Notes: generated by a model from the letters alone, not told the origin. 64,000 bases of DNA from Candidatus Parcubacteria bacterium (GCA_963766795.1 CAVYBN010000008.1:32696-96695), one strand, 5' to 3'. Positions 2,759 to 62,615 are shown, counted from the stretch's first letter. Program-made: numbers and translations.

Positions 2759-3526
2759 TTACGCCGTCAAAATCTCCGCGCCGCTCTTGGTGATGAGGAC
2801 GGTGTGCTCGAAATGCGCCGAGGGCTTGCCATCGGCGGTGCGGTAGGTCCACTCATCGGCGGCAAGGGCGATGCGGCGCGTGCCCAGATTGAACATCGGT
2901 TCGATGGCGATGACCAAGCCGGGAGAGAGGACTTCGCCTTGGCCGGCTTCGCCGTAATTCGGGACATAGGGATCCTCGTGGACGCGGAAACCGACTCCGT
3001 GGCCTGCCAATTCCTCGACAATGCCGTACTTCCCCGCTATGCCGATCAATTCGATGGCGCTAGAGATGTCGCCGACGCGCCGGCCGGCTTTGGCGGCTTT
3101 GATGCCTGCCATCAAGGCTTCCTTGGTGACGGAAAGCAGCTTCTCGAGCTCCGGAGAGATCGTGCCGACGCCCACGGTCACGGCCGCGTCGGTGATCAGG
3201 CCTTTGTGTACCAGGCCGAGGTCGAGCGAGACGATGTCGCCTTCTTGCAGGATCTTCTCGTCCTCGTTGGGTATGCCGTGGACGATCTCGTCATTCACGG
3301 AAACGCACAAAGACGCCGGGAATGGTCGGCTGGCTCCGCGCGGCTTGTAATTCAAGAACGCCGACTGGTCGCCGCCATTGGCGATCATCTCTTCGGCGCA
3401 AGCGTTCAATTCCGAGGCGGAAACGCCCGGTTGGACCAGTTTGACTAGCTCGCGCAATATAGCGGCATGGCGATGCCCACCTTCTCGCAAGATTGTGATA
3501 TCTTTCTTTGTTTTGAGAGTAATCAT
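2759..3526 (-). CDS. map: Methionine aminopeptidase type I
   Basis: 255-aa ORF with pita-bread fold motifs (GDIVSLDLG, GHGVG, AHFEHTV). It sits in the usual position after adk. Confidence 0.9.
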   Translation of the reverse strand: MITLKTKKDITILREGGHRHAAILRELVKLVQPGVSASELNACAEEMIANGGDQSAFLNYKPRGASRPFPASLCVSVNDEIVHGIPNEDEKILQEGDIVSLDLGLVHKGLITDAAVTVGVGTISPELEKLLSVTKEALMAGIKAAKAGRRVGDISSAIELIGIAGKYGIVEELAGHGVGFRVHEDPYVPNYGEAGQGEVLSPGLVIAIEPMFNLGTRRIALAADEWTYRTADGKPSAHFEHTVLITKSGAEILTA

Positions 3527-3618
3527 CTATTAAGGCGGACGAGGTAGAGATTCTGAAAGCCCGAGAACCTGTTTGAGCGAGCTGAGATCGCGTTGGTCCG
3601 GAGAATGCGGGAATTTGT

Positions 3619-3711
3619 GTCATCCCCGCGAAAGCGGGGATCTAGTGTCTTTGCTGTATGACCCTGGATTCCCGCTTGCGCCTTCGCTTCGCTCCGGCTT
3701 GCGGGAATGAC
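3619..3711. repeat. GC-rich palindromic element, composite copy (93 nt) in the adk-map spacer
   Basis: gtcatccccgcgaaagcggggatctag ... ctggattcccgc[expanded loop]gcgggaatgac. Same ends as the 84-bp copies at 49591, 55962 and 62487. Confidence 0.75.
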
Positions 3712-3768: not shown

Positions 3769-4362
3769 TTACCCCAAACCGACCTGCTTCACAATATCCG
3801 CGTGGATTGCTTCGACAGATCGTTCGCCATCGATCTTGAGGAAGCGATAATTCTTGTTGGTGCGGAAAAATTCCACGGCAGGCGCCACATCTGTCTCATA
3901 CCAGGCCAGACGCCTCTTGACGTCTTCGACGGTGTCATCGAAGCGCTTGCGCAGCAACAATCGCTTCAAGGCTTCTTCCGGACTGATGTCGATATTCAAA
4001 ACCCAAACAGTTTCGATGTTGTAGAATCCGAAAACTGAATCGAGCACGCCGGCTTCGTGGTACTTGCGAGGCGTGCCGTCGAAGATGATGTGCTCGTCGC
4101 CGGTGCAATTCTGAATGAGCGGATTTTCCCACATCTTTATGGCCAAAAATTCGGGTTGGAGCCCTCCGACATCGTTGACATCGCGGGACTTCTTCTGCGT
4201 GAATGATTCGCCTTTGACGAAGTCACGGAATTCTTGGCCAGTCTGGATGTAGAGGATGTCGCGCTTCGGATCCGCTTTTTTCAGATCTTCCATGAGGAGC
4301 TTCACCTGCGTCCCTTTGCCGCAGCCAGAACGGCCGATGAAGATGAAGGCTTGAGGTTTCAT
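3769..4362 (-). CDS. adk: Adenylate kinase family protein
   Basis: P-loop GRSGCGKGTQ; operon position between secY and map. Confidence 0.8.
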   Translation of the reverse strand: MKPQAFIFIGRSGCGKGTQVKLLMEDLKKADPKRDILYIQTGQEFRDFVKGESFTQKKSRDVNDVGGLQPEFLAIKMWENPLIQNCTGDEHIIFDGTPRKYHEAGVLDSVFGFYNIETVWVLNIDISPEEALKRLLLRKRFDDTVEDVKRRLAWYETDVAPAVEFFRTNKNYRFLKIDGERSVEAIHADIVKQVGLG

Positions 4363-4450: not shown

Positions 4451-5438
4451 CAGAGGTATCCCCGCACGGCCTAATTTGCTGAATTGATATATACTTTGTT
4501 GCGTGAAGAGAGCGGAATTTCTTGCGCTTTTGAGGCGCGTAATACGATATCAAGCAAGGTCAGGAAGCGTTTCCTGTCGTTGCTCCGGTTGTTGTAGTGG
4601 AAAACAAAGCCGTTTAGGTACTCCTCCAAATGCTGTTTCGAAACGCCCTTGTGCGTCCCGGCAACGCTCCGCTTGACGTGCGACCAGAACGATTCGACCG
4701 TGTTGACGTGAACGTCCCCGCGGACATACTCCTTCCGGTGATGGTCCACGGCATGATGATCATACAGCCTTCCGACTTTGACGAATGTGTTGCTCTTGTC
4801 GGTCATGAGGCGCGTTCCGGGCTCGATATGACGGAGAACGAAATCGCCGGTCGGCGCCGTTCCCATTCCAATGACCGTCTTGGCTCGCATGTCCCCGCCT
4901 CGTTCGACGGCTGCCATGGCCTTGGATTTCCTCTCGAAGGCCTCCCTGAGCCGCTTTCCGTCTTTTGGACCGGTCTTTCTGCCGCCAAAGTACGCCCCAT
5001 CGGTTTCAACATCACCGACAAGCCTTTTAATGCCTTGCTTCAGCGAGGTTCTGATCTCGTGGAGGATCCTCCATGCGCACTTGTATGTGACGGCCAAGTG
5101 ACGCTCCAATTGCTTGGCCGAGACGCCGCTTTTGGCATTGGAGAAAACCATGAGAGCGTGGAACCAGAGCACGAACGGAGTCGATGATTTCTCGAATACC
5201 GTACCGACGGCCGGGGCGATCTCGGAACGGCACCTGCCGCATTGAAATTTTTTGCGCTCATTGCGAAGAGCATAGGTACCGCCGCATGAACATCTGCGGG
5301 TATGAAGCGAATCAAATATGAATTCGAGACAGGCCTTGTTCGTCGGAAAATCGCGGTGAAGCTCGCGGATCCCGTATTTGGATGACCTGGCCATGCGGTA
5401 ATTCTATCAGCAAATTAGGCCGTGCGGGGATACCTCTC
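4451..5438 (-). mobile_element. IS1595-family insertion sequence (988 bp) between secY and adk
   Basis: Terminal inverted repeats cagaggtatccccgcacggcctaatttgctga and tcagcaaattaggccgtgcggggatacctctc. The 8-bp direct repeat cagaaaat occurs at 4443-4450 and 5439-5446. Confidence 0.85.
4471..5394 (-). CDS. IS1595/ISXO2-like DDE transposase with N-terminal zinc ribbon
   Basis: Cys clusters (CSCGG...CGRC) and the C-terminal signature NTVESFWSHVKR...HLEEYLNGFVFHYNNR. Confidence 0.85.
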   Translation of the reverse strand: MARSSKYGIRELHRDFPTNKACLEFIFDSLHTRRCSCGGTYALRNERKKFQCGRCRSEIAPAVGTVFEKSSTPFVLWFHALMVFSNAKSGVSAKQLERHLAVTYKCAWRILHEIRTSLKQGIKRLVGDVETDGAYFGGRKTGPKDGKRLREAFERKSKAMAAVERGGDMRAKTVIGMGTAPTGDFVLRHIEPGTRLMTDKSNTFVKVGRLYDHHAVDHHRKEYVRGDVHVNTVESFWSHVKRSVAGTHKGVSKQHLEEYLNGFVFHYNNRSNDRKRFLTLLDIVLRASKAQEIPLSSRNKVYINSAN

Positions 5439-8794: not shown

Positions 8795-8922
8795 GATAGT
8801 AAATTCAAAAGGCAAAAGGCAAAAGGCAAAATTGAAATTCAAAATTTAAAATTGAATTTGCGACAGAACTTTTGACTTTTGACTTTAACTTTTGCATTTT
8901 GATTTTTGAATTTTGACTTATA
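8795..8922. repeat. Heptad-word hairpin spacer, family B
   Basis: The left arm, (aaaggca)x3 then aaattga aattcaa aatttaa, opposes ttttgac ttttgac tttaac ttttgca ttttgat. Near-identical copy at 13285-13404. Confidence 0.8.
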
Positions 8923-13284: not shown

Positions 13285-13404
13285 GGTAATTAAAGGCAAA
13301 AGGCAAAAGGCAAAATGCAAAATTGAAATTCAAAATTTAAAATTGAATCTGCGACGGAACTTTTGATTTTTGACTTTAACTTTTGCATTTTGATTTTTGA
13401 CTTT
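13285..13404. repeat. Heptad-word hairpin spacer, family B
   Basis: Near-identical to 8795-8922. Confidence 0.8.
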
Positions 13405-13623
13405 TTAATTAGTTTTTTTCACCTTCGACGCGTAGATCGGCATAGCTCTCTCGACGGTCTGACCTTTAGCGCCTTGCTGACGGGGTCGCTCATGCTTCTT
13501 GGTCATATTCACACCCTCGACCAATACTTTGCCGAGAGCCGGAAAAGCCTTGACGACCTTGGCGGTCTTGCCTTTGTCTTCGCCGGATAAGATTGTAACC
13601 GTGTCTCCTGTTTTGATATGCAT
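13405..13623 (-). CDS. rplX: 50S ribosomal protein L24
   Basis: KOW motif IKTGDTVTILSGEDKGK. Confidence 0.9.
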   Translation of the reverse strand: MHIKTGDTVTILSGEDKGKTAKVVKAFPALGKVLVEGVNMTKKHERPRQQGAKGQTVERAMPIYASKVKKTN

Positions 13624-13722
13624 GGTAGTGATTACTTTACTTAAATTGATTCAGGATTCAAGATTCATGATTCAGGAATTTTTGTGTTCTTCTTGAATCG
13701 TGAATCCTGAATCTTGAATCTC
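13624..13722. repeat. Heptad-word hairpin spacer, family D (gattcag/gattcaa words)
   Basis: gattcaggattcaagattcatgattcagg opposes cttgaatcgtgaatcctgaatcttgaatc. Confidence 0.8.
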
Positions 13723-14094: not shown

Positions 14095-14168
14095 GTTTTA
14101 CTTGAATCAAGATTCAAGATTCATGATTCAAGAGGTTTTTCTTGAATCCTGAATCCTGCATCCTGAAT
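14095..14168. repeat. Heptad-word hairpin spacer, family D
   Basis: cttgaatcaagattcaagattcatgattcaag opposes cttgaatcctgaatcctgcatcctgaatc. Confidence 0.8.
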
Positions 14169-14426
14169 CTATGCGATGATTTTAAACGCCTTCCTCTTCG
14201 AGATCGGCCGACAGGCCAGGACGGTGGCCTTGTCCCCTTCCTTCTTGGTGTTACCCGCATCATGCGCCATGATCTTGGTCTGCTTATTCTGATACTTGCC
14301 GTACTTCGAATGCTTGATGTAGCGCTTGACCAGGACGACGGCCGTGTCTTTCATCTTCGTCGAAACCACGACGCCGGTGAATGTCTGCGGCTTTGTGTTA
14401 TTCGCGGTTGTTTGGGCGGCTGTCAT
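14169..14426 (-). CDS. rpsQ: 30S ribosomal protein S17
   Basis: Operon position; FTGVVVSTKMKDTAVVLV. Confidence 0.9.
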   Translation of the reverse strand: MTAAQTTANNTKPQTFTGVVVSTKMKDTAVVLVKRYIKHSKYGKYQNKQTKIMAHDAGNTKKEGDKATVLACRPISKRKAFKIIA

Positions 14427-22772: not shown

Positions 22773-23810
22773 TCAACTCATCGATGCAATCCTCAACTTG
22801 TGACCATTACCGTGGCTTATCAGACCGAGGTACGACTGTATAACTTCGGACTTGCCTTCGCTGTCCTTTAATCTTCTGAACATCCTACGCTTTGTGGCTG
22901 TCCTCAATACTCGATGGTCGGGAAAATTGACCCAACCGAGATAGTCGACGCCAGAAGCTATGGTACTGATCGATATTTTATTGGGGTGAAGTTGGAGCTT
23001 TAATCTGTCAGATAAGAATACTCGGATAAGAGGCAGAACCGAACACAACCATTCTCTATCAGATGACAAGATGACAAAATCGTCGGCATATCTTATATAG
23101 TATCTGGCTTTCAGTGAATGCTTCACGAATTGCTCGAATTCGTTCATGTAGATGTTCACGAATAATTGCGAGGTCAGATTGCCTAGGGGCAAGCCGACCC
23201 CTTTTCCCGTCGAAGAAAAGCTGTGAATGATTTCGGAGATCAATACGAGAATATCTTTGTCCGGAATGTATTCAGCCAAGATTGCAAGCAGCGTCGCCTG
23301 ATCAATCGAAGCGAAGAATTTACGTATGTCGCATTTGAGCACCCAAGCCGTTTTGGTGTGATTTAGGGTCACTTTATATGCAAATGAGCGGAATCGATTT
23401 ACAGCCTTATGCGTTCCTTTTTCAAGCCTGCACGACGAGGAATCCGACACGAATGTCCTGTCGAAGAATGGATACAGCATTCTATAGACGGCATGGTGAA
23501 TTAATCGATCTCGTACGGCGGCTTTATGGATATCCCTTTCCTTTGGATCGTGGATCCTGAAGAATTCATATGGCGAATGCTTGTAACTTTTAGTCGCCAG
23601 ATCGTCGTGAAGATAAATGATGTTAGCCATGAGGTCGCGTTCGAATTCTTGGACATCCTTGCGAGAGCGTTTTCCTCTTACGAATTCTTTCCATGCGGCA
23701 AGCAGATTTTCAAGCGAGATGATATCATGATACGCATGTTTGAATCGGATCCGTCGCAGACAATGAAGACCCCCCCCCCACGCAATTTTGCCGGTTTTGA
23801 CCAAGGTCAA
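22773..23810 (-). CDS. Diversity-generating retroelement reverse transcriptase
   Basis: LPLGNLTSQLFVNIYMNEF (the DGR-type GxxxSQ motif) and YIRYADDFVIL (YxDD). A TR/VR pair lies adjacent. Confidence 0.85.
   Translation of the reverse strand: MTLVKTGKIAWGGGLHCLRRIRFKHAYHDIISLENLLAAWKEFVRGKRSRKDVQEFERDLMANIIYLHDDLATKSYKHSPYEFFRIHDPKERDIHKAAVRDRLIHHAVYRMLYPFFDRTFVSDSSSCRLEKGTHKAVNRFRSFAYKVTLNHTKTAWVLKCDIRKFFASIDQATLLAILAEYIPDKDILVLISEIIHSFSSTGKGVGLPLGNLTSQLFVNIYMNEFEQFVKHSLKARYYIRYADDFVILSSDREWLCSVLPLIRVFLSDRLKLQLHPNKISISTIASGVDYLGWVNFPDHRVLRTATKRRMFRRLKDSEGKSEVIQSYLGLISHGNGHKLRIASMS
23770..23779. repeat. C10/G10 homopolymer in the overlapping 5' ends of the RT and avd-like genes
   Basis: Ten consecutive C on the + strand. 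They encode WGGG in the RT frame and separate ATG 23763 from the avd-like frame by 1 nt. Confidence 0.9.
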
Positions 23811-24150
23811 AGACGCTTATCTGTTGTGGCATGGATTTTATAGAGAATTACCAAAATTTCACAGGAATTCTTTCGGGTTTCGCGTTGACTCATTGTTCGT
23901 TGAGATCATCGAGGCGATCGCGGCCGCCGGTTTCCTGTCGCCGCAGGAGAAGCATCCGTATGTACGCGTCGCCATACGCAAGCTCGACGCTCTCAAGGTA
24001 TTACTGATGATCCTCTGGGAAGCCAAGTCGCTCGACGACAAGAAGTATATCGCATTGTCAGTGAAGCTCGATGAGATCGGCAGAGATCTTGGCGGCTGGA
24101 ACGGAAAGCTAACAAAACAAAACTCCCCCGCCAAAGCAGGAGAGAAATGA
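23788..24150 (+). CDS. avd: Avd-like four-helix-bundle protein (DGR accessory variability determinant family)
   Basis: Helical heptad pattern with PKFHRNSFGFRV and C-terminal KLDEIGRDLGGWNGKL. It lies on the strand opposite to the RT, TR and target. It has only a TTG start as sequenced. Confidence 0.6.
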   Translation: MPVLTKVKDAYLLWHGFYRELPKFHRNSFGFRVDSLFVEIIEAIAAAGFLSPQEKHPYVRVAIRKLDALKVLLMILWEAKSLDDKKYIALSVKLDEIGRDLGGWNGKLTKQNSPAKAGEK

Positions 24151-26620: not shown

Positions 26621-27045
26621 AGTTCAAAAGTTAAAACTCAAAATGCAAAACTTATCATTTGGACTTCAATGTGATAATGCTCTTGCCAAGCATTCTGGAA
26701 ATCTCATCCGTCTCGGCAATAAGCAGATTAATCTTATCAGACGGACCAAGTTTGCTCATTTTAAGCAAGCTTAACCAATACATGGATTCATGCGCGCTTT
26801 TGAGAGCAATCTCATAATATCTTTTGAACTCCAATCTGGAACTGCTAGATTTTGCTTCAGTTATGTTTGCCCCGATTGACATCGATGAGCGAAGCAACTG
26901 ATCAGTAATGATCCAAACTGCTCTTTTATTCGGCAAGTTTCTGCACAGATCGATTACGTTCAAACTCAATACAAAAGCCCTTGCTTTGACGTCTGTTTTG
27001 AGTTTTTCATTTAAGTTTTGCATTTTGAGTTTTGACTTTTGAATT
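26621..27045. repeat. Hairpin-bracketed cassette: 34-bp inverted arms (32/34 match) enclosing one ORF
   Basis: Arm 26621-26654 is agttcaaaagttaaaactcaaaatgcaaaactta. The reverse complement of arm 27012-27045 is aattcaaaagtcaaaactcaaaatgcaaaactta. Confidence 0.85.
26655..27023 (-). CDS. Four-helix-bundle protein of the 23S rRNA intervening-sequence (IVS)/Avd superfamily
   Basis: NLPNKRAVWIITDQLLRSSMSIGANITEAKSSSSRLEFKRYYEIALKSAHES matches the IVS-protein pattern. The ATG lies inside the right arm. Confidence 0.7.
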   Translation of the reverse strand: MQNLNEKLKTDVKARAFVLSLNVIDLCRNLPNKRAVWIITDQLLRSSMSIGANITEAKSSSSRLEFKRYYEIALKSAHESMYWLSLLKMSKLGPSDKINLLIAETDEISRMLGKSIITLKSK

Positions 27046-34315: not shown

Positions 34316-35501
34316 CTATGCGACTATTTTGGTTACGACACCCGACCCTACTGTCTTGCCTCCCTCACGGACGGCGAAGCGCATCTGGGCTTCGAGGGCG
34401 ACCGGCGCGACCAGCTTGACCTTGAAGGTCACGGTATCGCCGGGCATGACCATCTCGACCTTCTCCGGCAAAGTGACTTCGCCGGTGACATCGGTGGTGC
34501 GGATGTAGAACTGAGGCTTGTAGCCGGTAAAGAACGGGGTGTGGCGGCCGCCTTCCTCCTTCTTCAAGACGTAGACTTCAGACTCGAATTCGGTATGAGG
34601 CTTTACGGAACCCGGCTTGGCCAGGACTTGGCCGCGGGAGACGTCTTCTTTGGCGGTGCCGCGCAGGAGCAATCCGGCGTTGTCTCCGGCGATGCCTTCC
34701 TTAAGCGACTTGTTGAACATCTCGATGCCGGTGATGACGGTCTTGGCGGCATCACGGAAGCCGACGATCTCGACTTCGTCGCCGACCTTGACCTTGCCGC
34801 GCTCGATCCTGCCGGTCACGACTGTGCCGCGTCCTTCGATCGAGAAGATGTCCTCGATCGGCATCAGGAACGGCTTGTCGACTTCGCGCACTGGCTCCGG
34901 GATGTAATTGTCCAGAGCATCCATGAGCTCGTCGATCTTGAGTTGTCCAGGCAGCATCGCCTTCGAGGGCCTTCAGGGCCGAGCCGCGGATGACCGGGGC
35001 ATTCTTGCCGTCGAAGCCGTTCTTGGTGAGGAGCTCGCGCACTTCCTCCTCCACGAGATCGATGAGGTCCTTCTCCTCGACCATGTCGCACTTGTTGAGG
35101 AATACGAGGACTTTCGGCACGCCGACCTGGCGGGCCAGGAGGATGTGCTCGCGGGTCTGCGGCATGACGCCGTCGGTGGCGGACACGACCAGGATGGCTC
35201 CGTCCATCTGGGCGGCGCCGGTGATCATGTTCTTGACGAAGTCCGCGTGGCCGGGACAGTCGATGTGGGCGTAGTGGCGCTTGGCCGTCTCGTACTCGAC
35301 GTGCGAGAGCGAGATGGTGACGGTCTTGGTGGCGTCACGGACGGTGCCGCCCTTGGTAATGTCGGCGTAGGCTTTGACCTGTGCCATGCCCTTCTTGGCC
35401 TGGACGGCCAGAATAGCGGCGGTCAAAGTGGACTTGCCGTGGTCGATGTGGCCGATGGTGCCGACGTTGACGTGCGGCTTGGTGCGATTGAAATCTGCCA
35501 T
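34316..35501 (-). CDS. tuf: Elongation factor Tu, with one frame break near 34946
   Basis: ORF 34752-35501 (GHIDHGKST...[12 protein letters not shown]) and ORF 34316-34957 ([18 protein letters not shown]...) join if one extra base after the TGG codon is ignored. Confidence 0.85.
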
Positions 35502-46127: not shown

Positions 46128-46213
46128 GATAGTTGATTAGATTCTAGATTTGAGATTCTAGATTCTAGAATAATTGCTTCATTCTCGAATCTCGAATCTA
46201 GAATCTTTATTCT
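46128..46213. repeat. Heptad-word hairpin spacer (ttctaga words)
   Basis: gattagattctagatttgagattctagattctagaat opposes attctcgaatctcgaatctagaatc. Confidence 0.8.
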
Positions 46214-48940: not shown

Positions 48941-49567
48941 CTATATCCCCACCCCGGTGAAGAGCCGGAACACCCACGGGATAATCGGCTCGACGACTTG
49001 CCAGAGGAAGAAGACGACGATCAAGACGAAGATCGGCGCGTAGCGTTCGAGCGTTAGGCGGAAGCGACCATATTGATTCGGCAGAATCGAGAAAAGGATC
49101 TTGGAACCGTCGAGCGGAGGCAGTGGAATGAGATTGAAGATGGCGAGGACGATGTTGATTATGACGATGGTCGAAACGATCTCAAAAAATGGGGCGTATG
49201 CCGTGGCAGTAGCAACATCGGTGATCCCGGCGACAGTGAAACGCAAGATGGTGCCGAATATCAATGCCAGCAGAAGATTGGAAGCCGGACCGGCCAGAGA
49301 GATCAGCAATTCGCCTTGGCGCTTGTTCTTCAGGTTATAAGGATTGTACGGCACCGGTTTGGCCCAGCCGAACGTGAAGCCGAATATTGAAGTGATCAAT
49401 GGCACGAGAATGGAACCGATGGGATCGATGTGCTTCAAGGGATTCAGGGTCAATCGGCCAGCCAATCGCGCGGTCGGATCGCCAAGTCGGTCAGCCATGA
49501 AGCCGTGAGAGACCTCGTGGAGGATCACGGAGAAGATTAGGATTATGATAGATAAGATTATTAGCAT
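48941..49567 (-). CDS. Site-2 protease family (M50) zinc metalloprotease
   Basis: HEVSHG (HExxH) lies in the first TM helix; polytopic. Confidence 0.75.
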   Translation of the reverse strand: MLIILSIIILIFSVILHEVSHGFMADRLGDPTARLAGRLTLNPLKHIDPIGSILVPLITSIFGFTFGWAKPVPYNPYNLKNKRQGELLISLAGPASNLLLALIFGTILRFTVAGITDVATATAYAPFFEIVSTIVIINIVLAIFNLIPLPPLDGSKILFSILPNQYGRFRLTLERYAPIFVLIVVFFLWQVVEPIIPWVFRLFTGVGI

Positions 49568-49590: not shown

Positions 49591-49674
49591 GTCACCCCCG
49601 CGGAAGCGGGGGTCCAGTGTAATACAACTAATGTTATTGGTATTACTCTGGATTCCCGCTTTCGCGGGAATGAC
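49591..49674. repeat. GC-rich palindromic element, 84-bp composite, intergenic copy
   Basis: gtcacccccgcggaagcgggggtccag, a 30-nt spacer, then ctggattcccgctttcgcgggaatgac. Confidence 0.85.
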
Positions 49675-53987: not shown

Positions 53988-54776
53988 TCAAATCGCCTCG
54001 AATTCAGCCATTATTTTCGCTTCGTCGTCGGCGCTTTCGGCTTTTCTGAACTTGGCTCCAGCGACGCCTTTGACGCGCTTCTCGCATTCCGCCCAAGTGT
54101 GATGGGTCTCGATGACGCCTTGGACCATGCTCACATAGGAATAGGCTTTTGCCCGTGAATGCGCCGAGTCAGAGCTCTTTTTGCTTTGCAATGCTTCGTC
54201 GAGCGAGATGTTCAGGATATCCGGCAGATCGTAGTCAGCCAGCGAGCCTTGATAGAGCTTGATCTTCATGCCGTCCGCGAATGCTGTGGCGATGTGGTCG
54301 CAACGCTCGTTGCCGAGAATGCCGACATGTCCGCCGACATAATTCCATTTGACCGAGAGCTTCGAATTCAATTCGTCCAACTCCTCCCAAAGGTCGCGAT
54401 TGAGCACGCTTTGTTTCGTCTTGGTCTGCCAGCCGTTGCGCTTCCAACTCTTGACCCACTTTGTAATACCATTGATCACATAGGAAGAATCTGTGAAGAG
54501 AGTGATTTGAGTATTTAAACCCTGGATTCCCGCTTTCGCGGGAATGACACGGCTGGCTTGAATCTTTTTGAGCCCCCCAATCGCCGCTGTCAATTCCATC
54601 CGATTATTCGTCGTGTTCTTCTCGCCTCCGCCAAGCTCGATGACTGTCGCATTTTCATCTCGTCCTTTAATCGTTGCTTTTTCACTTTGCACTATTACAG
54701 TTCCCCAACCGCCTGGACCAGGATTGTTGCGCGACGAGCCGTCGGTGAAGATGGTGATTGGGTCCGGTTGATTCAT
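53988..54776 (-). CDS. rnhA: Ribonuclease HI with a C-terminal hybrid-binding-domain-like module and an in-frame palindromic-element insert
   Basis: The RNase H core has TDGSSRNNPGPGGWG, NNRMEL and GNERCD. The C-terminus has YSYVSMVQGVIETHHTWAECEKRVKGVAGAKFRK. Start set at MNQPDP (ATG 54776). Confidence 0.8.
   Translation of the reverse strand: MNQPDPITIFTDGSSRNNPGPGGWGTVIVQSEKATIKGRDENATVIELGGGEKNTTNNRMELTAAIGGLKKIQASRVIPAKAGIQGLNTQITLFTDSSYVINGITKWVKSWKRNGWQTKTKQSVLNRDLWEELDELNSKLSVKWNYVGGHVGILGNERCDHIATAFADGMKIKLYQGSLADYDLPDILNISLDEALQSKKSSDSAHSRAKAYSYVSMVQGVIETHHTWAECEKRVKGVAGAKFRKAESADDEAKIMAEFEAI
54522..54548. repeat. 27-bp half palindromic element, in frame inside rnhA
   Basis: ctggattcccgctttcgcgggaatgac is translated as VIPAKAGIQ. 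Confidence 0.85.
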
Positions 54777-54872
54777 GACAACATAGTAGCATATGTAAGA
54801 AATCGGGATAAAAAATGGCGCCCCGACTTCGGAGCGCAGTGACACTTGCAATAATTCCAACGACCAAAGAAT

Positions 54873-55445
54873 TTAACCATTAACTTTGGCTTGAAACAGG
54901 GGGCTTTCCTTGAGCAGTTCCGCGAACCTGCCGGAGACTCTTTCGCGCCGCTCAATACATTCAATGAGCCACCTATCTATTTCCTCGCGTACGCAAGAAG
55001 CAAGGTCCGCATCGTGGCTAGCGACAAGAACCGTTTCATCGTTTGTCTTCCTGATCACTGATTCCTGTGAAAGGAAGATGTATTTACCCCGTAAGGTGCA
55101 TTTGCCCTGATTGACAAAAATTGTCCTCCACAGAAACCAGTCTCCTTCTCTGTTCAGGAAAAGCAAATTCTTCCTGACTTCCTTGGCCTGAGTGAGATCG
55201 TGCATACAATCGTATGCGAGATGATTACACCTAGCCACGACCCGAAGATAAGTATTGTCAGTGAAACCGAATGGGACCAGCAAGCTATCCTTACGGATTT
55301 CAAATAAGCACCTCTTCCTTCCCGCACAAGTAATCTCCTCTTTGAGGAAGTAATCAGGAACTCGCTTGAAGATAAGATATTCCAAGAGAGGCTTAATCCT
55401 TTGGGACTCTGCAGTTAACGAGAATTTGGACGCATCCGCATTCAT
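54873..55445 (-). CDS. Hypothetical protein
   Basis: 190-aa ORF with lower GC; no family recognised. Confidence 0.4.
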   Translation of the reverse strand: MNADASKFSLTAESQRIKPLLEYLIFKRVPDYFLKEEITCAGRKRCLFEIRKDSLLVPFGFTDNTYLRVVARCNHLAYDCMHDLTQAKEVRKNLLFLNREGDWFLWRTIFVNQGKCTLRGKYIFLSQESVIRKTNDETVLVASHDADLASCVREEIDRWLIECIERRERVSGRFAELLKESPLFQAKVNG

Positions 55446-55529
55446 ATGTTTTTCTATTTATTTTGTTTTTGTTGAACTCTTGCTCTTTGGGACGCATCCC
55501 GCCAAGCAGAACCGAGATTGAATCTAGGC

Positions 55530-57674
55530 CTATTTAGGAACAATGTCAACCACCCTCAACCTCAATTCCGGCCTGCCACGATACATGGATTTCTCGACGG
55601 AAGCGATGAGGTCGAGCGGCTGACCGGCTTTGGCCTTGTCGGCCCACTCGTTATTCACGCCGAAGAATGAGATGGCGGAGACTTTCTTATTGGCACCGAG
55701 ATCAAACGACAATTCGATGTGCTCATTCCCCTTCCCGAACCGTCGCACGCTGGATGGCTTCACGCTTTTGAAAAGAAATGCCGGCTTGCGATTGCCGATG
55801 CCGAACGGCGCCAGCTTATTGATCTCGTCGTGAAGACGATATGTTATTTGGCTCAATTGGAGCTCGGCGTCGATGAAGCTGGCTTCGGAGGCAGAAGATT
55901 CTTCATCAGCCTTGGAAGTGTCGCTCTCTAGATTATCGTTATCGCCATTGCCTGTCATTTTGTCATTCCCGTGCAAACGGGAATCCAGTGTCTTTCCGCT
56001 AGACTTAATCGTTTCACCCTGGACCCCCGCTTTCGCGGGGGTGACAGAAGCGTCTGGCTTCCTGGTCTCAATCTCTGCATCCTTCGCCAATCCTTCTGCA
56101 GCTTCATTCAATCGTTGCTCCAGATAATGGACGGCGTCATTGCTGACGGTGAATCCGCCGGAATGATGATGGCCGCCAAATTGCGTGAGCGTGCCGACCG
56201 GCATGGCGCGCATGAGTTCGACGACATGGGTCTTGCCTTCGGAGCGGCACGAGCCTTTGATGAGATCGTCGCCGTCGCGGCCCCACAGGAAGACCGGCCG
56301 ATGGAATTCTTCGGCGCAGGAATTCGCGGCCAGACCCAGCAATGAAGGCCTCCATTGCGGATTGCCTAGCACGATGACGCTTGGTAAGCCAGATTTTACA
56401 TGCTCGATCTCTGTGATGCTTTCACCTCCAATCGTTGGACCCTGGATTCCCGCTTTCGCGGGAATGACAACACTATTGTCCTTAACTTTTGAGTTTTGAC
56501 TTGCAATTTTGACTTTTGACTTTTGACTTTTGACTTTGCTTGGTTCTTCGCCGTATCTCTCTCTGATCGTCTTTTTTACCTCCTTGACGAGAGACGCCAC
56601 CACGCCTTTCCTTTCATTATTGATCTCATCCAGATGAGCAGCGGCGATGGCACCGGCCTCGTCGGTATCGGCGGCCAGAAGATCGAATGCGTCCATAGGC
56701 ACGCCCATGCGCGAGGCGGCGTTGATGCGCGGCGTGATCATGAAGGCGATATCGTCCTCGGTCAAGTGTTCCTGCGCGATCCGCAATCTCGAGAGGAGTT
56801 GGCGTAGGCCTTTGCGCGGGCTCTTGCGCAAGACCGTGAGGCCATAGTGCGCGAAGACGCGATTCTCGCCTGTAAGCGGCACCATATCCGAGAGCGTGGC
56901 CATGCCGACCAGATCCAAGAACCACTTCTCGTGTCCTTCCTTGAAGCCGGCCGCGGCAAAAAGCGATGAAAGACTTTTGTCGTCTTTCGACTTCTTGATG
57001 ATCGCCTGGATCAGTTTGTAAGCCACACCGGTACCGCAAAGATTTTTGTCGGGATATTTGCAATCAGCCTGCTTGTGATCGACGATAGCGAAGGCTGGCG
57101 GCTTTTCTTCACATCCGGTCTTCTGAGATATCGGCGCTTCATGGTGATCGGTGATGATGACATCCATTTCCAATTCATTGGCGCGCTCGACAGGCTTTAC
57201 GTCAGTTATGCCGCAATCGACCGTGATAAGCAGCTTCACGCCTTGGCTCGCCAATTCTTCTACAGCTTCGATATTCAATCCGAATCCCTCATTATGGCGA
57301 TGTGGGATGTAGATGACGAAATCCTTGAATCCGATGCGCTTGAAGAAGTCATTCCACATGGCGGCGCCGGGAATGCCGTCGGCGTCATAGTCGGCGTATA
57401 TGGCCATCTTTTCGCTGGAAATAAGCGCCTGAATGATCCGTTCGGCCGCTTTCTCGGCGTCTTTCAACAGGAATGGGTCGTGCGTGTCGCGCTCGTAATC
57501 TGGCACCAGGAATCTTTCGGCAGTCTCGGCATCGCTTATCCCGCGGTGGAACAACAGATGCGCGGTAAGGTCAGGCACGCCGGAAAGCGCGTTCCTTTCG
57601 TCTGGGGTCAAGACTCGTCGGATGGAATAGCTCATAAGGCTGAGTATAGCATTTGCTAGAGAATAAAATTTCAA
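55530..57674 (-). CDS. recJ: Single-stranded-DNA-specific exonuclease RecJ with repeat-derived in-frame insertions
   Basis: DHH motifs (ADYDADG, VIITDHH) and DHHA1. Three repeat elements are translated in frame in the linker region. Confidence 0.85.
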   Translation of the reverse strand: MKFYSLANAILSLMSYSIRRVLTPDERNALSGVPDLTAHLLFHRGISDAETAERFLVPDYERDTHDPFLLKDAEKAAERIIQALISSEKMAIYADYDADGIPGAAMWNDFFKRIGFKDFVIYIPHRHNEGFGLNIEAVEELASQGVKLLITVDCGITDVKPVERANELEMDVIITDHHEAPISQKTGCEEKPPAFAIVDHKQADCKYPDKNLCGTGVAYKLIQAIIKKSKDDKSLSSLFAAAGFKEGHEKWFLDLVGMATLSDMVPLTGENRVFAHYGLTVLRKSPRKGLRQLLSRLRIAQEHLTEDDIAFMITPRINAASRMGVPMDAFDLLAADTDEAGAIAAAHLDEINNERKGVVASLVKEVKKTIRERYGEEPSKVKSQKSKVKIASQNSKVKDNSVVIPAKAGIQGPTIGGESITEIEHVKSGLPSVIVLGNPQWRPSLLGLAANSCAEEFHRPVFLWGRDGDDLIKGSCRSEGKTHVVELMRAMPVGTLTQFGGHHHSGGFTVSNDAVHYLEQRLNEAAEGLAKDAEIETRKPDASVTPAKAGVQGETIKSSGKTLDSRLHGNDKMTGNGDNDNLESDTSKADEESSASEASFIDAELQLSQITYRLHDEINKLAPFGIGNRKPAFLFKSVKPSSVRRFGKGNEHIELSFDLGANKKVSAISFFGVNNEWADKAKAGQPLDLIASVEKSMYRGRPELRLRVVDIVPK
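55962..56045. repeat. 84-bp composite palindromic element, in frame inside recJ
   Basis: gtcattcccgtgcaaacgggaatccag, a 30-nt spacer, then ctggacccccgctttcgcgggggtgac. Translated as VTPAKAGVQGETIKSSGKTLDSRLHGND. Confidence 0.85.
56442..56538. repeat. 27-bp half palindromic element plus a single ttttgac heptad arm, in frame inside recJ
   Basis: ctggattcccgctttcgcgggaatgac is translated as VIPAKAGIQ. It is followed by (ttttgac)n, translated as KVKSQKSKVKIASQNSKVK. Confidence 0.8.
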
Positions 57675-57792
57675 AATTCAAATCACAAATTCCAGAAAAG
57701 CTCCAAATTCCAGTAATCAAATGCTGTATGAATTCTGAAGTTTGGATTTTGTGATTTTTCTGGAATTTGGATTTTGAAATTTGGATTTTTCC
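57668..57792. repeat. Heptad-word hairpin spacer, family A
   Basis: tcaaatcacaaattccagaaaagctccaaattcc opposes ggattttgtgatttttctggaatttggattttgaaatttgg. Confidence 0.8.
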
Positions 57793-60977: not shown

Positions 60978-62615
60978 TTACTGCACCTGATCCCACGAGA
61001 TCATCTGATATTGGCTCGAGGCTAAGGGGAAAGTCGGCGGCGGCGCGTAGAGCAAGTTGCTATCGTAAGTGATGTTGCGGATCTGATATCCGGTATTGTC
61101 AGTGTAAGCGAAGCCGTAGCGATTATTCGTGGCGATCATGCCATTCAGGTTGATCGTCGATCGGACATGGAAATCCGTGCTATTCACCGTGCAATCGTTG
61201 TCATAATAGAAGCGCCCGATGCGGCCATTCTCGGCGACCAAGGCGGCGTCGACCGTCAGAACGTCTTCGGAGAGCAGGCCGACGTTGATATTCCCTTGGG
61301 CGATGAGACCGATCGTGTCGCGGCCGTCGAAATAGGTGTAGAGCAGATTGCCGCCGGTCGAAGCGTTTCCGTTATCTTGCCCGATCGTGATGTTCGGCTC
61401 ATTGCCGGGACTGTCTGGGAATGTCCCGGCGGCGATCGTCAATCGGCTGCCGCTCACCTGCCCGTCGATCCAGAGATCGTCTTCGACGAAGATGACTCCG
61501 TTCCCCGGATTCGGCCAGGAATGATCGCTATTCGGGCCGTTCACTTGCGTCTGGCTGTTGTTGCCCCCACTACCCGTGGTGATCTGACCAGAGTTGTTGA
61601 CCTTGATGCTCCAAGTCCCCCACTGGGTCTGGTTGTTGCTGTTCGTGCAATTGTTCGGGACCGATTGAAGGCCATTGATCTTGTACATGTTGTAAGTGCC
61701 GTTGGGATTCATGACCATGTGATAGCCCTGCGCGCCGGACGGCGGCCAATCCTTGCCGCCGGATTGCGCGGCGGTCTGCAATTGCTGGAGATTGACGGTC
61801 AGGCCGGGAAAATCGGTGGCCGGCACCGGGAATTGCCTACCCGCGGTGAAAACATCGGGCCGAGGGGATTCTGCCGTCGGCGGATGTGGATCGTCGGTTC
61901 CGACTGAAGTCCAGACTCCCCATTCGGTCAGCCCGGTATCGGGATCAGTGTAAGTATTTTGGGCGCTGGAGATGATGTTGTAAGCCGTGCCGTCGAAGCG
62001 GATGCCATAGTTGGAGGTGACCGGACCATAGACCGCCGTGCCTGCGCCGAAGCGCAGATAATCGTCGGCCACCACTGAATATTGCGCCAAGGACGGGATG
62101 GCCATGGTCGCCTGGACGATGCGCTTGACCGTCGGATTGGCCGTGGTCGTAGCCGTGGAAGTGATGACGACTTTGGTCGAACCCGTCGGAGGAGAAGTGA
62201 TCGACAAGGCGTATGAGCCGAGCAGGTTGCCGTCCTTGTCGTAGAACTTATGATAATAAGGGCCGGAATTATTCGTGCCGTCCTTATAATCAGTCGGCAA
62301 TTGCGCCAAGTGCCAGCGATAATAGTCGATGCCGGCTTCGGCGATCTGGAACGCTTGTTCTCGCGTTTGAACCGTGCGGATGCCGGCGAGCATGGACACT
62401 CCCCAATTGGTCAGGCCTGTCAGGATCGTCACTGCCACAGCCGCGAAGACCAGGACCACCACGAGGATGTCGCCTTTTGAGGCATTGTCACCCCCGCGAA
62501 AGCGGGGGTCCAGGGGATTACCATTAACGTCATCGGTGAAACACTGGATTCCCGCTTCCGCGGGAATGACAAAAACGCTTTTCTCCCTTTCTTCGTTTCT
62601 TCTTTTCTGCTTCAT
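60978..62615 (-). CDS. PilX-like / minor pilin-like large extracellular protein with an in-frame 84-bp element near the N-terminus
   Basis: A hydrophobic N-terminal helix (ILVVVLVFAAVAVTILTGL) follows the repeat-encoded segment. An ATGA overlap joins it to the upstream pilin-like gene. Confidence 0.55.
   Translation of the reverse strand: MKQKRRNEEREKSVFVIPAEAGIQCFTDDVNGNPLDPRFRGGDNASKGDILVVVLVFAAVAVTILTGLTNWGVSMLAGIRTVQTREQAFQIAEAGIDYYRWHLAQLPTDYKDGTNNSGPYYHKFYDKDGNLLGSYALSITSPPTGSTKVVITSTATTTANPTVKRIVQATMAIPSLAQYSVVADDYLRFGAGTAVYGPVTSNYGIRFDGTAYNIISSAQNTYTDPDTGLTEWGVWTSVGTDDPHPPTAESPRPDVFTAGRQFPVPATDFPGLTVNLQQLQTAAQSGGKDWPPSGAQGYHMVMNPNGTYNMYKINGLQSVPNNCTNSNNQTQWGTWSIKVNNSGQITTGSGGNNSQTQVNGPNSDHSWPNPGNGVIFVEDDLWIDGQVSGSRLTIAAGTFPDSPGNEPNITIGQDNGNASTGGNLLYTYFDGRDTIGLIAQGNINVGLLSEDVLTVDAALVAENGRIGRFYYDNDCTVNSTDFHVRSTINLNGMIATNNRYGFAYTDNTGYQIRNITYDSNLLYAPPPTFPLASSQYQMISWDQVQ
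62487..62570. repeat. 84-bp composite palindromic element, in frame in the PilX-like gene
   Basis: gtcacccccgcgaaagcgggggtccag, a 30-nt spacer, then ctggattcccgcttccgcgggaatgac. Translated as VIPAEAGIQCFTDDVNGNPLDPRFRGGD. Confidence 0.85.

Follow-up and report, generated by a model that had tools for sequence, protein, structure and literature searches.

Ten copies of a 27-nucleotide (nt) hairpin repeat lie at six loci in a 64,000-nt stretch of DNA from a Candidatus Parcubacteria bacterium (GCA_963766795.1 CAVYBN010000008.1:32696-96695, the whole of which we call the window), and four of these loci fall in frame within genes, including recJ and rnhA. We consider it highly probable that these units are copies of a known and very widespread family of hairpin repeats, the CGTC-1 REPs, which correspond to dRS3 and NTS/SRM of Neisseria and to RPE-6 of Rickettsia conorii, and that they would spread through repair triggered by single-stranded DNA (ssDNA) or a nuclease. 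The initial annotation of the window had described a palindromic interspersed repeat inserted in frame, in a lineage-specific manner, in loops and linkers. That description stands. The annotation missed the family to which the repeat belongs, and its views that an adjacent heptad arm in recJ is part of the element and that lengths in multiples of three reflect selection were not borne out.

A hairpin repeat at six loci

The unit is 27 nt long and reads GTCAYYCCCGC-GAAA-GCGGGRR-TCCAG. T directly precedes GTC in all ten copies, so the head is always TGTC. The exact 27-mer CTGGATTCCCGCTTTCGCGGGAATGAC, with up to three mismatches allowed, matched the window six times (0.00 expected); the degenerate unit GTCAYYCCCGYNNNNRCGGGRRTCYAG matched nine times (0.01 expected), at 3619, 49591/49648, 54522, 55962/56019, 56442 and 62487/62544. 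A tenth unit, at 3664-3711, has a loop expanded by 25 nt. These counts, far above chance, confirm a genuine repeat. The unit can be written as ATTCCCGC/GAAA/GCGGGAAT followed by CCAG, with a stem of 8 bp closed by a tetraloop; as DNA it folds at -9 kcal/mol (z = -6.2), and the first A-T pair of the stem is retained in the variants with a CC stem.

The six loci comprise three 84-bp inverted dimers (27+30+27), one 93-bp variant dimer (27+18+48) and two single units; the four dimers have their heads pointing outwards. When placed in the same orientation, all three 84-bp dimers are heterodimers in which a spacer separates a CC-stem unit from a TT-stem unit. Their arms are identical at 50-52 of 54 positions (93-96 %) and their spacers at 16-18 of 30 (53-60 %), compared with 7.5 ± 2.4 (~25 %) for random 30-mers. 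Given near-identical arms and spacers that are more alike than random sequences, the three dimers form one local subfamily with a diverged spacer. The spacers showed no relationship to dimer spacers of other phyla; this subfamily is local to the lineage. The dimers can fold as two hairpins or as a single long hairpin (z from -4 to -10.6), and no target-site duplication flanks the window copies. Rfam gave no family match anywhere in the window at gathering thresholds. Two of the dimers are intergenic:

3619-3711, no strand: variant inverted dimer of 93 bp, between adk (3769-4362, minus strand) and map (2759-3526, minus strand), which were assigned by Pfam ADK and M24; SRM match at 3618-3645

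49591-49674, no strand: 84-bp heads-out heterodimer upstream of an M50 peptidase gene (48941-49567, minus strand; Pfam); as one long hairpin, -30.3 kcal/mol, z = -10.6

The repeat is a CGTC-1, dRS3 and NTS relative

'CGTC-tagged REPs' have been sorted into classes (Di Nocera, De Gregorio and Rocco 2013, BMC Genomics 14:522; PMC3733652). The CGTC-1 class, which is dRS3 in Neisseria and RPE-6 in R. conorii, has a CGTC or TGTC head (CCTC is allowed), an 8-bp stem beginning with A-T, a loop of 4 nt and CCA as the tail; it occurs mostly as inverted dimers with spacers of 20-100 bp, and no dedicated transposase gene accompanies it (PMC3733652). The window units have this head (TGTC in ten of ten), stem, loop and tail, and they form inverted dimers at four of the six loci, including, as in CGTC-1, heterodimers with differing stems. 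Inverted dimers carry the label 'HH' in that study; the heads-out orientation is taken from the window and from other genomes.

The likeness extends to behaviour within genes. Intragenic CGTC-1 copies encode 8-9 amino acids and dimers 20-30, the peptides include VIPAKAGI, SFPRKRES, CHSRESGNP/HSRESGNP and LDSRFRGND, the hosts are R. conorii, Sphingomonas wittichii (S. wittichi in the paper), Sphingopyxis alaskensis, Erythrobacter litoralis and Coxiella, and many intragenic REPs lie within replication and repair genes (PMC3733652 and its supplementary table). The window shares the peptide lengths, the VIPAKAGI and LDSRFRGND types and the replication and repair hosts. By contrast, the class was published for Proteobacteria, Chlorobi, Bacteroidetes, Spirochaetes and Thermotogae, without Patescibacteria, the host genes given include neither that for RecJ nor that for RNase HI (PMC3733652), and the head in our window is invariably TGTC. 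The in-frame intragenic behaviour is therefore already documented for the family; what appears to be new, being listed in neither PMC3733652 nor PMC11893778, is the host lineage (Patescibacteria) and the host genes (those for RecJ, RNase HI and a pseudopilin-like protein).

The NTS, CGTCATTCCCGCGMAVGCGGGAATCYRG, is a superset of dRS3 (28-nt extension), and its degenerate form is the 'Ssn-related motif' (SRM); as ssDNA, the NTS is bound and nicked by SsnA, a GIY-YIG nuclease of 94 residues, and NTS/SRM copies occur in diverse bacteria, often flanking ssn (PMC11893778; Nat Commun 2025, 16:2388). Three window units match the NTS with at most one mismatch. The SRM expression has nine matches in the window, eight of which are units of the element, against 0.24 expected from Markov simulations. 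The TT-stem unit equals the NTS consensus except for the base before GTC (T for C), and both are oriented hairpins in several copies, the window holding ten units in 64 kb. They differ in setting: the Neisseria repeats lie in intergenic clusters (NIMEs) around genes, whereas most window copies appear to be read in frame. The same dimer layout is found in a Neisseria sequence printed in a pilus paper (PMC7593972). A literature search with the peptide VIPAKAGIQ matched no paper, and searches with DNA and peptide fragments returned only a Neisseria construct sequence, which pointed to dRS3.

A scan for the exact 27-mer pattern, with one genome per species, placed it at no fewer than 119 loci in more than 15 phyla; a Rickettsia endosymbiont, Sphingopyxis, Bradyrhizobium, Lysobacter and seven Patescibacteria are among the matches listed. 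The 27-mer is unchanged across genomes from 31 % to more than 60 % G+C. The exact unit, itself 59 % G+C, is present unaltered in two Patescibacteria loci of 31 % and 35 % G+C (L030:5192-5218 and L062:4629-4694, respectively), which argues for either a recent horizontal arrival or a strong constraint on the unit sequence. It is also found on 81 viral-contig stretches. Both the viral copies and the unchanged 27-mer in low-G+C genomes of the Candidate Phyla Radiation (CPR) point to horizontal spread.

The resemblance to Rickettsia palindromic elements that the initial annotation had noted proves to be homology, because a locus of the Rickettsia endosymbiont (L041) carries dimers of 117-132 bp with the same 27-nt ends and because CGTC-1 is RPE-6; the R. 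conorii CGTC-1/RPE-6 peptides are identical to those encoded here. Like those elements, the window repeats are palindromes that sit in frame within housekeeping genes, at structurally permissive sites, and are missing from orthologues. The hosts differ, one being an obligate intracellular alphaproteobacterium and the other belonging to the free-living or epibiotic Patescibacteria, and the Rickettsia dimers are longer, with unrelated, A+T-rich spacers. RPE-6 and RPE-4 were reportedly described by Ogata et al. in 2000 and 2002. One dimer in L041, of 128 bp (remainder 2 on division by 3), lies in frame in an open reading frame (ORF) that, judging by eye from its sequence motifs, we take to be isoleucyl-tRNA-synthetase-like.

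This dimer also bears on the idea that element lengths in multiples of three were selected for in genes. The unit keeps its length of 27 nt in every setting, 84 bp is also the length of the intergenic dimer, and dimer lengths in other taxa are spread over remainders 0, 1 and 2 as 29/30/16, with no genic versus intergenic bias, in a classification of ORF embedding that is crude for high-G+C genomes. With a 128-bp dimer read in frame and a unit of constant length, divisibility by three carries no weight.

In-frame copies occupy loops and linkers

The four genic loci are all read in the same phase (phase 0), and the peptides first reported for rnhA, recJ and the ORF at 60978-62615 are correct. 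The genes and loci are as follows:

53988-54776, minus strand: rnhA, with an RNase H domain and a C-terminal Cauli_VI-like domain (Pfam); the true start is the ATG at 54776, from alignments with four related loci (L120-L123)

54522-54548, minus strand: single unit in rnhA, VIPAKAGIQ, in the RNase HI loop between helix A and strand 4

55530-57635, minus strand: recJ, 701 amino acids, with DHH, DHHA1 and RecJ_OB domains (Pfam); identical to database protein P0001

55962-56045, minus strand: 84-bp heterodimer in recJ, VTPAKAGVQ-GETIKSSGKT-LDSRLHGND, in the DHHA1/OB linker

56412-56469, minus strand: truncated dimer in recJ, consisting of a TT-stem unit (56442-56468, VIPAKAGIQ) and a spacer remnant of ~27-30 nt, in the DHH/DHHA1 linker

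62487-62570, minus strand: 84-bp heterodimer in ORF 60978-62615, VIPAEAGIQ-CFTDDVNGNP-LDPRFRGGD, in the N-terminal tail

The RecJ homologues place the window in a Patescibacteria genome of the Parcubacteria type. In RecJ, the dimer encodes residues 531-558 of 701 and the second copy residues 390-398. The recJ copies had been described as one composite and one half copy. The composite holds; the half copy is better read as a truncated dimer, because the ~27 nt adjoining the unit are related to the spacer of the recJ dimer (16 of 30 positions identical in the remnant), the whole being a 54-nt insertion relative to L122 and L123. An alignment of 19 RecJ proteins places both segments in regions of variable length and shows neither in the orthologues of 77 % and 75 % identity. 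Relative to the solved structure 8y30, residues 354-420 correspond to 13 residues and residues 524-586 (~62) to 2. An alignment-based AlphaFold model (mean predicted local distance difference test score, pLDDT, of 76) has three stretches of at least three residues below 50: the mis-extended N terminus and residues 378-427 and 539-597 in the numbering of the 714-residue ORF. The last two coincide exactly with the segments that carry the repeats and are both predicted to be coil.

In RNase HI, VIPAKAGIQ forms residues 77-85 (counted from the start at 54776) and is part of a 13-residue gap relative to the E. coli enzyme. The gap falls after the conserved MEL..AAI segment and ahead of the strand ending in TDS, a position that we take to be the loop between helix A and strand 4. 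The third host is a pseudopilin-like ORF of 545 residues, whose segment reads VIPAEAGIQCFTDDVNGNPLDPRFRGGD. Its dimer lies between the start codon and a hydrophobic, probably transmembrane, stretch; the ATG at 62615 overlaps the stop codon of an upstream N_methyl pilin-like gene, and there is no in-frame start between the dimer and the hydrophobic stretch.

Comparison with orthologues supports the insertion of these segments, as initially proposed. The repeat segments are absent from 118 of 119 other RecJ homologues and have no counterpart in RecJ and RNase H orthologues that are 77 % and 75 % identical. At the DNA level, the first recJ site is empty in L120, holds a (GTCAAAA)n heptamer array but no 27-mer in L122, and has heptamers and a further 54 nt in this genome. 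Close relatives have short heptamer arrays at the rnhA site in place of the unit. The gene order around the intergenic dimer differs in relatives. Since L120-L123 contain no unit in a total of 35 kb, the family appeared or expanded after the split from those relatives (~75 % identical). A Parcubacteria RecJ with 57 % identity (P0084) has VIPAKAGIQ at residues 450-458, in its DHHA1/OB linker; this insertion is independent of the window recJ copy and shares its linker and phase.

These comparisons dispose of the view that the segments are ancestral functional peptide motifs and not inserted DNA. Intact frames and the recurrence of one peptide in unrelated proteins would fit such a view, but the identical nucleotides are also found between genes, in either orientation and in different phyla, and the segments are missing from close orthologues and are predicted to be disordered. 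We regard it as already refuted.

Possible selection on the genic copies

A different question is whether the in-frame copies are selected as DNA sites within coding sequence, for example as Ssn sites that limit replacement by transforming DNA. The arms of the dimers are far better conserved than their spacers, window copies are found within or next to comEC, rnhA and recJ and within the pilin operon, and in Neisseria the NTS together with SsnA lowers the transformation of NTS-bearing DNA (PMC11893778). However, arm conservation could equally result from recent independent insertions of diverged sources or from gene conversion, there are six loci and no ssn gene was found in the window, and four genic loci out of six are no enrichment, because ~88 % of the window lies within ORFs. 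We therefore think such selection unlikely.

Patescibacteria depend on DNA uptake. A more specific form of the idea is that the NTS/CGTC-1 units are selected, dual-coding Ssn-type sites in competence and recombination genes (comEC-rnhA-recJ and the type IV pilin operon) that would protect these genes or modulate recombination. The conserved arms against drifted spacers, the shared reading phase of the four genic loci and the location of the genes leave room for this possibility, to which we give a low probability. The use of phase 0 in the four window copies and in P0084 is not unusual, since in R. conorii all five open frames are used and VIPAKAGI is the commonest peptide among single units (PMC3733652 table).

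Proposed partner enzyme and mode of spread

In other genomes, adjacent unit pairs are arranged heads-out in 76 of 96 cases, no direct repeat abuts 73 of 78 dimers, and the base before GTC is C in 62 % and T in 31 % (93 % together). Single units are the commonest form in other taxa (116, compared with 75 dimers). Five ssn-like genes were found among 204 loci, and three of these lie between a plus-strand and a minus-strand unit, 10-105 nt away:

L142:2948-3377, ssn-like GIY-YIG gene between heads-out units, on an IMG/VR viral contig with four exact units

L051:829-1187, ssn-like GIY-YIG gene between heads-out units

L050:6425-6916, ssn-like GIY-YIG gene between heads-out units

This ssn-flanking layout, also known for NTS/SRM, is the layout of the dimer with a gene in the spacer. 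To our knowledge, Ssn is the only protein partner of these repeats that has been demonstrated experimentally. It binds the hairpin in ssDNA and nicks just upstream of the head (PMC11893778). The units are oriented, with an unpaired (T/C)GTC head, a stem, a GAAA loop and a CCAG tail; we propose that they are non-autonomous and that the dimers would be non-autonomous relatives of NTS(+)-ssn-NTS(-) from which the gene has been removed. They may spread via ssDNA or nick-induced, nuclease-triggered repair and not by DDE transposition, probably with an Ssn-type enzyme whose gene lies in another part of the genome or that is brought in by a mobile element. Copies surviving in genes would be those that kept the frame and landed in permissive linkers or loops. 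Tolerance in genes would be helped by the unit's length of nine codons and by its lack of stop codons in five of the six frames; the one frame with a stop reads ...GAATGA.

Several observations weigh against this interpretation. In the window, a motif scan, tblastn and Pfam on ~78 ORFs of at least 100 residues turned up no ssn (cd10448) or other GIY-YIG gene, which also sets the window apart from the Neisseria loci, and no ssn gene was found in seven other Patescibacteria loci. The empty-site comparisons fall in hypervariable loops, so that exact insertion junctions are not clean, and the translation of the inserts is deduced from intact reading frames. GIY-YIG nucleases, which hydrolyse DNA, have no strand-joining activity known to us.

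Two kinds of transposition offer themselves as alternatives to nuclease-triggered repair. In the first, the units would be REPINs, that is, REP doublets mobilized by RAYT, a tyrosine HUH transposase of the IS200/IS605 type. GTAG REPs are likewise oriented hairpins with an unpaired tetranucleotide head, forming inverted doublets that fold into a long hairpin and leave no target-site duplication. They have a GTAG head and a tyrosine HUH transposase, whereas the repeats described here have a (T/C)GTC head, TGTC in the window, no transposase gene is tied to CGTC REPs (PMC3733652), and the gene found between units elsewhere encodes a GIY-YIG nuclease. Among the window ORFs scanned there was no Y1 transposase (Y1_Tnp) and no IS110-type gene. 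This origin is very unlikely.

In the second, the 84-bp dimer would be a classical MITE (miniature inverted-repeat transposable element), a deletion derivative of an insertion sequence (IS) moved by cut-and-paste by a DDE transposase. The dimer's small size and its terminal inverted repeats of 27 bp fit this, as does the presence in the window of an IS1595 transposase gene (4471-5394). However, target-site duplications are lacking at 73 of 78 dimers and at the window copies, and single units, not dimers, are the commonest form. The IS1595 copy was rejected as the parent element, since its perfect 31-bp inverted repeats are unrelated to the unit. We consider a MITE origin highly improbable.

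Heptamer arrays are separate from the element

Near the truncated recJ dimer, the initial annotation had counted a heptad arm as part of the element:

56485-56537, minus strand: (GTCAAAA)n heptamer tandem array (Tandem Repeats Finder, TRF), translated as KVKSQKSKVK...; not part of the palindromic element

The heptamer-coded stretch, KVKSQKSKVKIASQNSKVK, is indeed present in recJ. The heptamers were considered as a part or a target of the element and rejected as a part, because the orthologous array in L122 lacks the unit (L120 has no array) and because arrays of many unrelated heptamers occupy most gene boundaries in the window. There are 38 period-7 arrays of 2-8 copies each, with many unit sequences, compared with 0-3 in first-order Markov shuffles, and most lie within a few to tens of nucleotides of gene ends. 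It is more likely that the co-occurrence of heptamers and units reflects a shared tolerance of variable linkers.

Examples of the arrays are 8801-8919, 13292-13410, 13648-13721, 14107-14169, 26995-27042, 46138-46206, 56485-56537 and 57741-57789. Part of them fall within reading frames, namely in the linker of RecJ, in the loop of RNase H in L120 and L122 and in an N-terminal extension of the S10-bearing ORF. Two CPR RecJ proteins, P0010 and P0094, have peptides such as DSGFKIQ and QDSRFKIQ in the same linkers, and these may share the origin of the heptamer arrays.

Other features of the window

Between recJ and rnhA, which are adjacent (~55 nt apart) in four relatives, lies a segment of ~700 bp with slightly lower G+C and an ORF of 190 residues (54873-55445, minus strand). 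The ORF has no match in Pfam, NCBIfam or PADLOC. An NTS-bounded cassette was considered for it and rejected, as the junctions carry no unit.

A ribosomal-protein cluster at ~4400-48900 (tuf, S10, L4, L23, L2, S3, L5, S8, L15, secY, adk and map) is broken by many other genes. Within it lie the IS1595 element (4452-5437), two SocA/Panacea genes, two DUF3800 genes, a nucleotidyltransferase-HepT fusion, an AbiEii/AbiEi pair, MacB/HlyD transporters and several ORFs without a family match. EF-Tu is split (34316-35501, minus strand) into overlapping ORFs in different frames, one with the GTP domain (34752-35501) and the other with domains 2 and 3 (34316-34957). The junction is near 34945-34957, with the break at ...GDAAW/(T)QLKIDELM..., and may reflect an indel of one base, an error in the assembly or a genuine frameshift. 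A reverse transcriptase gene (RVT_1, 22773-23810, minus strand) adjoins a weak bAvd-like ORF (23788-24150, plus strand; below the Pfam cut-off); the pair may be a diversity-generating retroelement.

Implications

The window presents a known repeat family showing known behaviour, and no new mechanism is revealed. It extends the dRS3/NTS/RPE-6 hairpin family to the CPR, and RecJ and RNase HI join the replication and repair proteins that carry such inserts. For annotation, it explains why CPR proteins can have over-long linkers and why peptides such as VIPAKAGIQ and LDSRFRGND recur.

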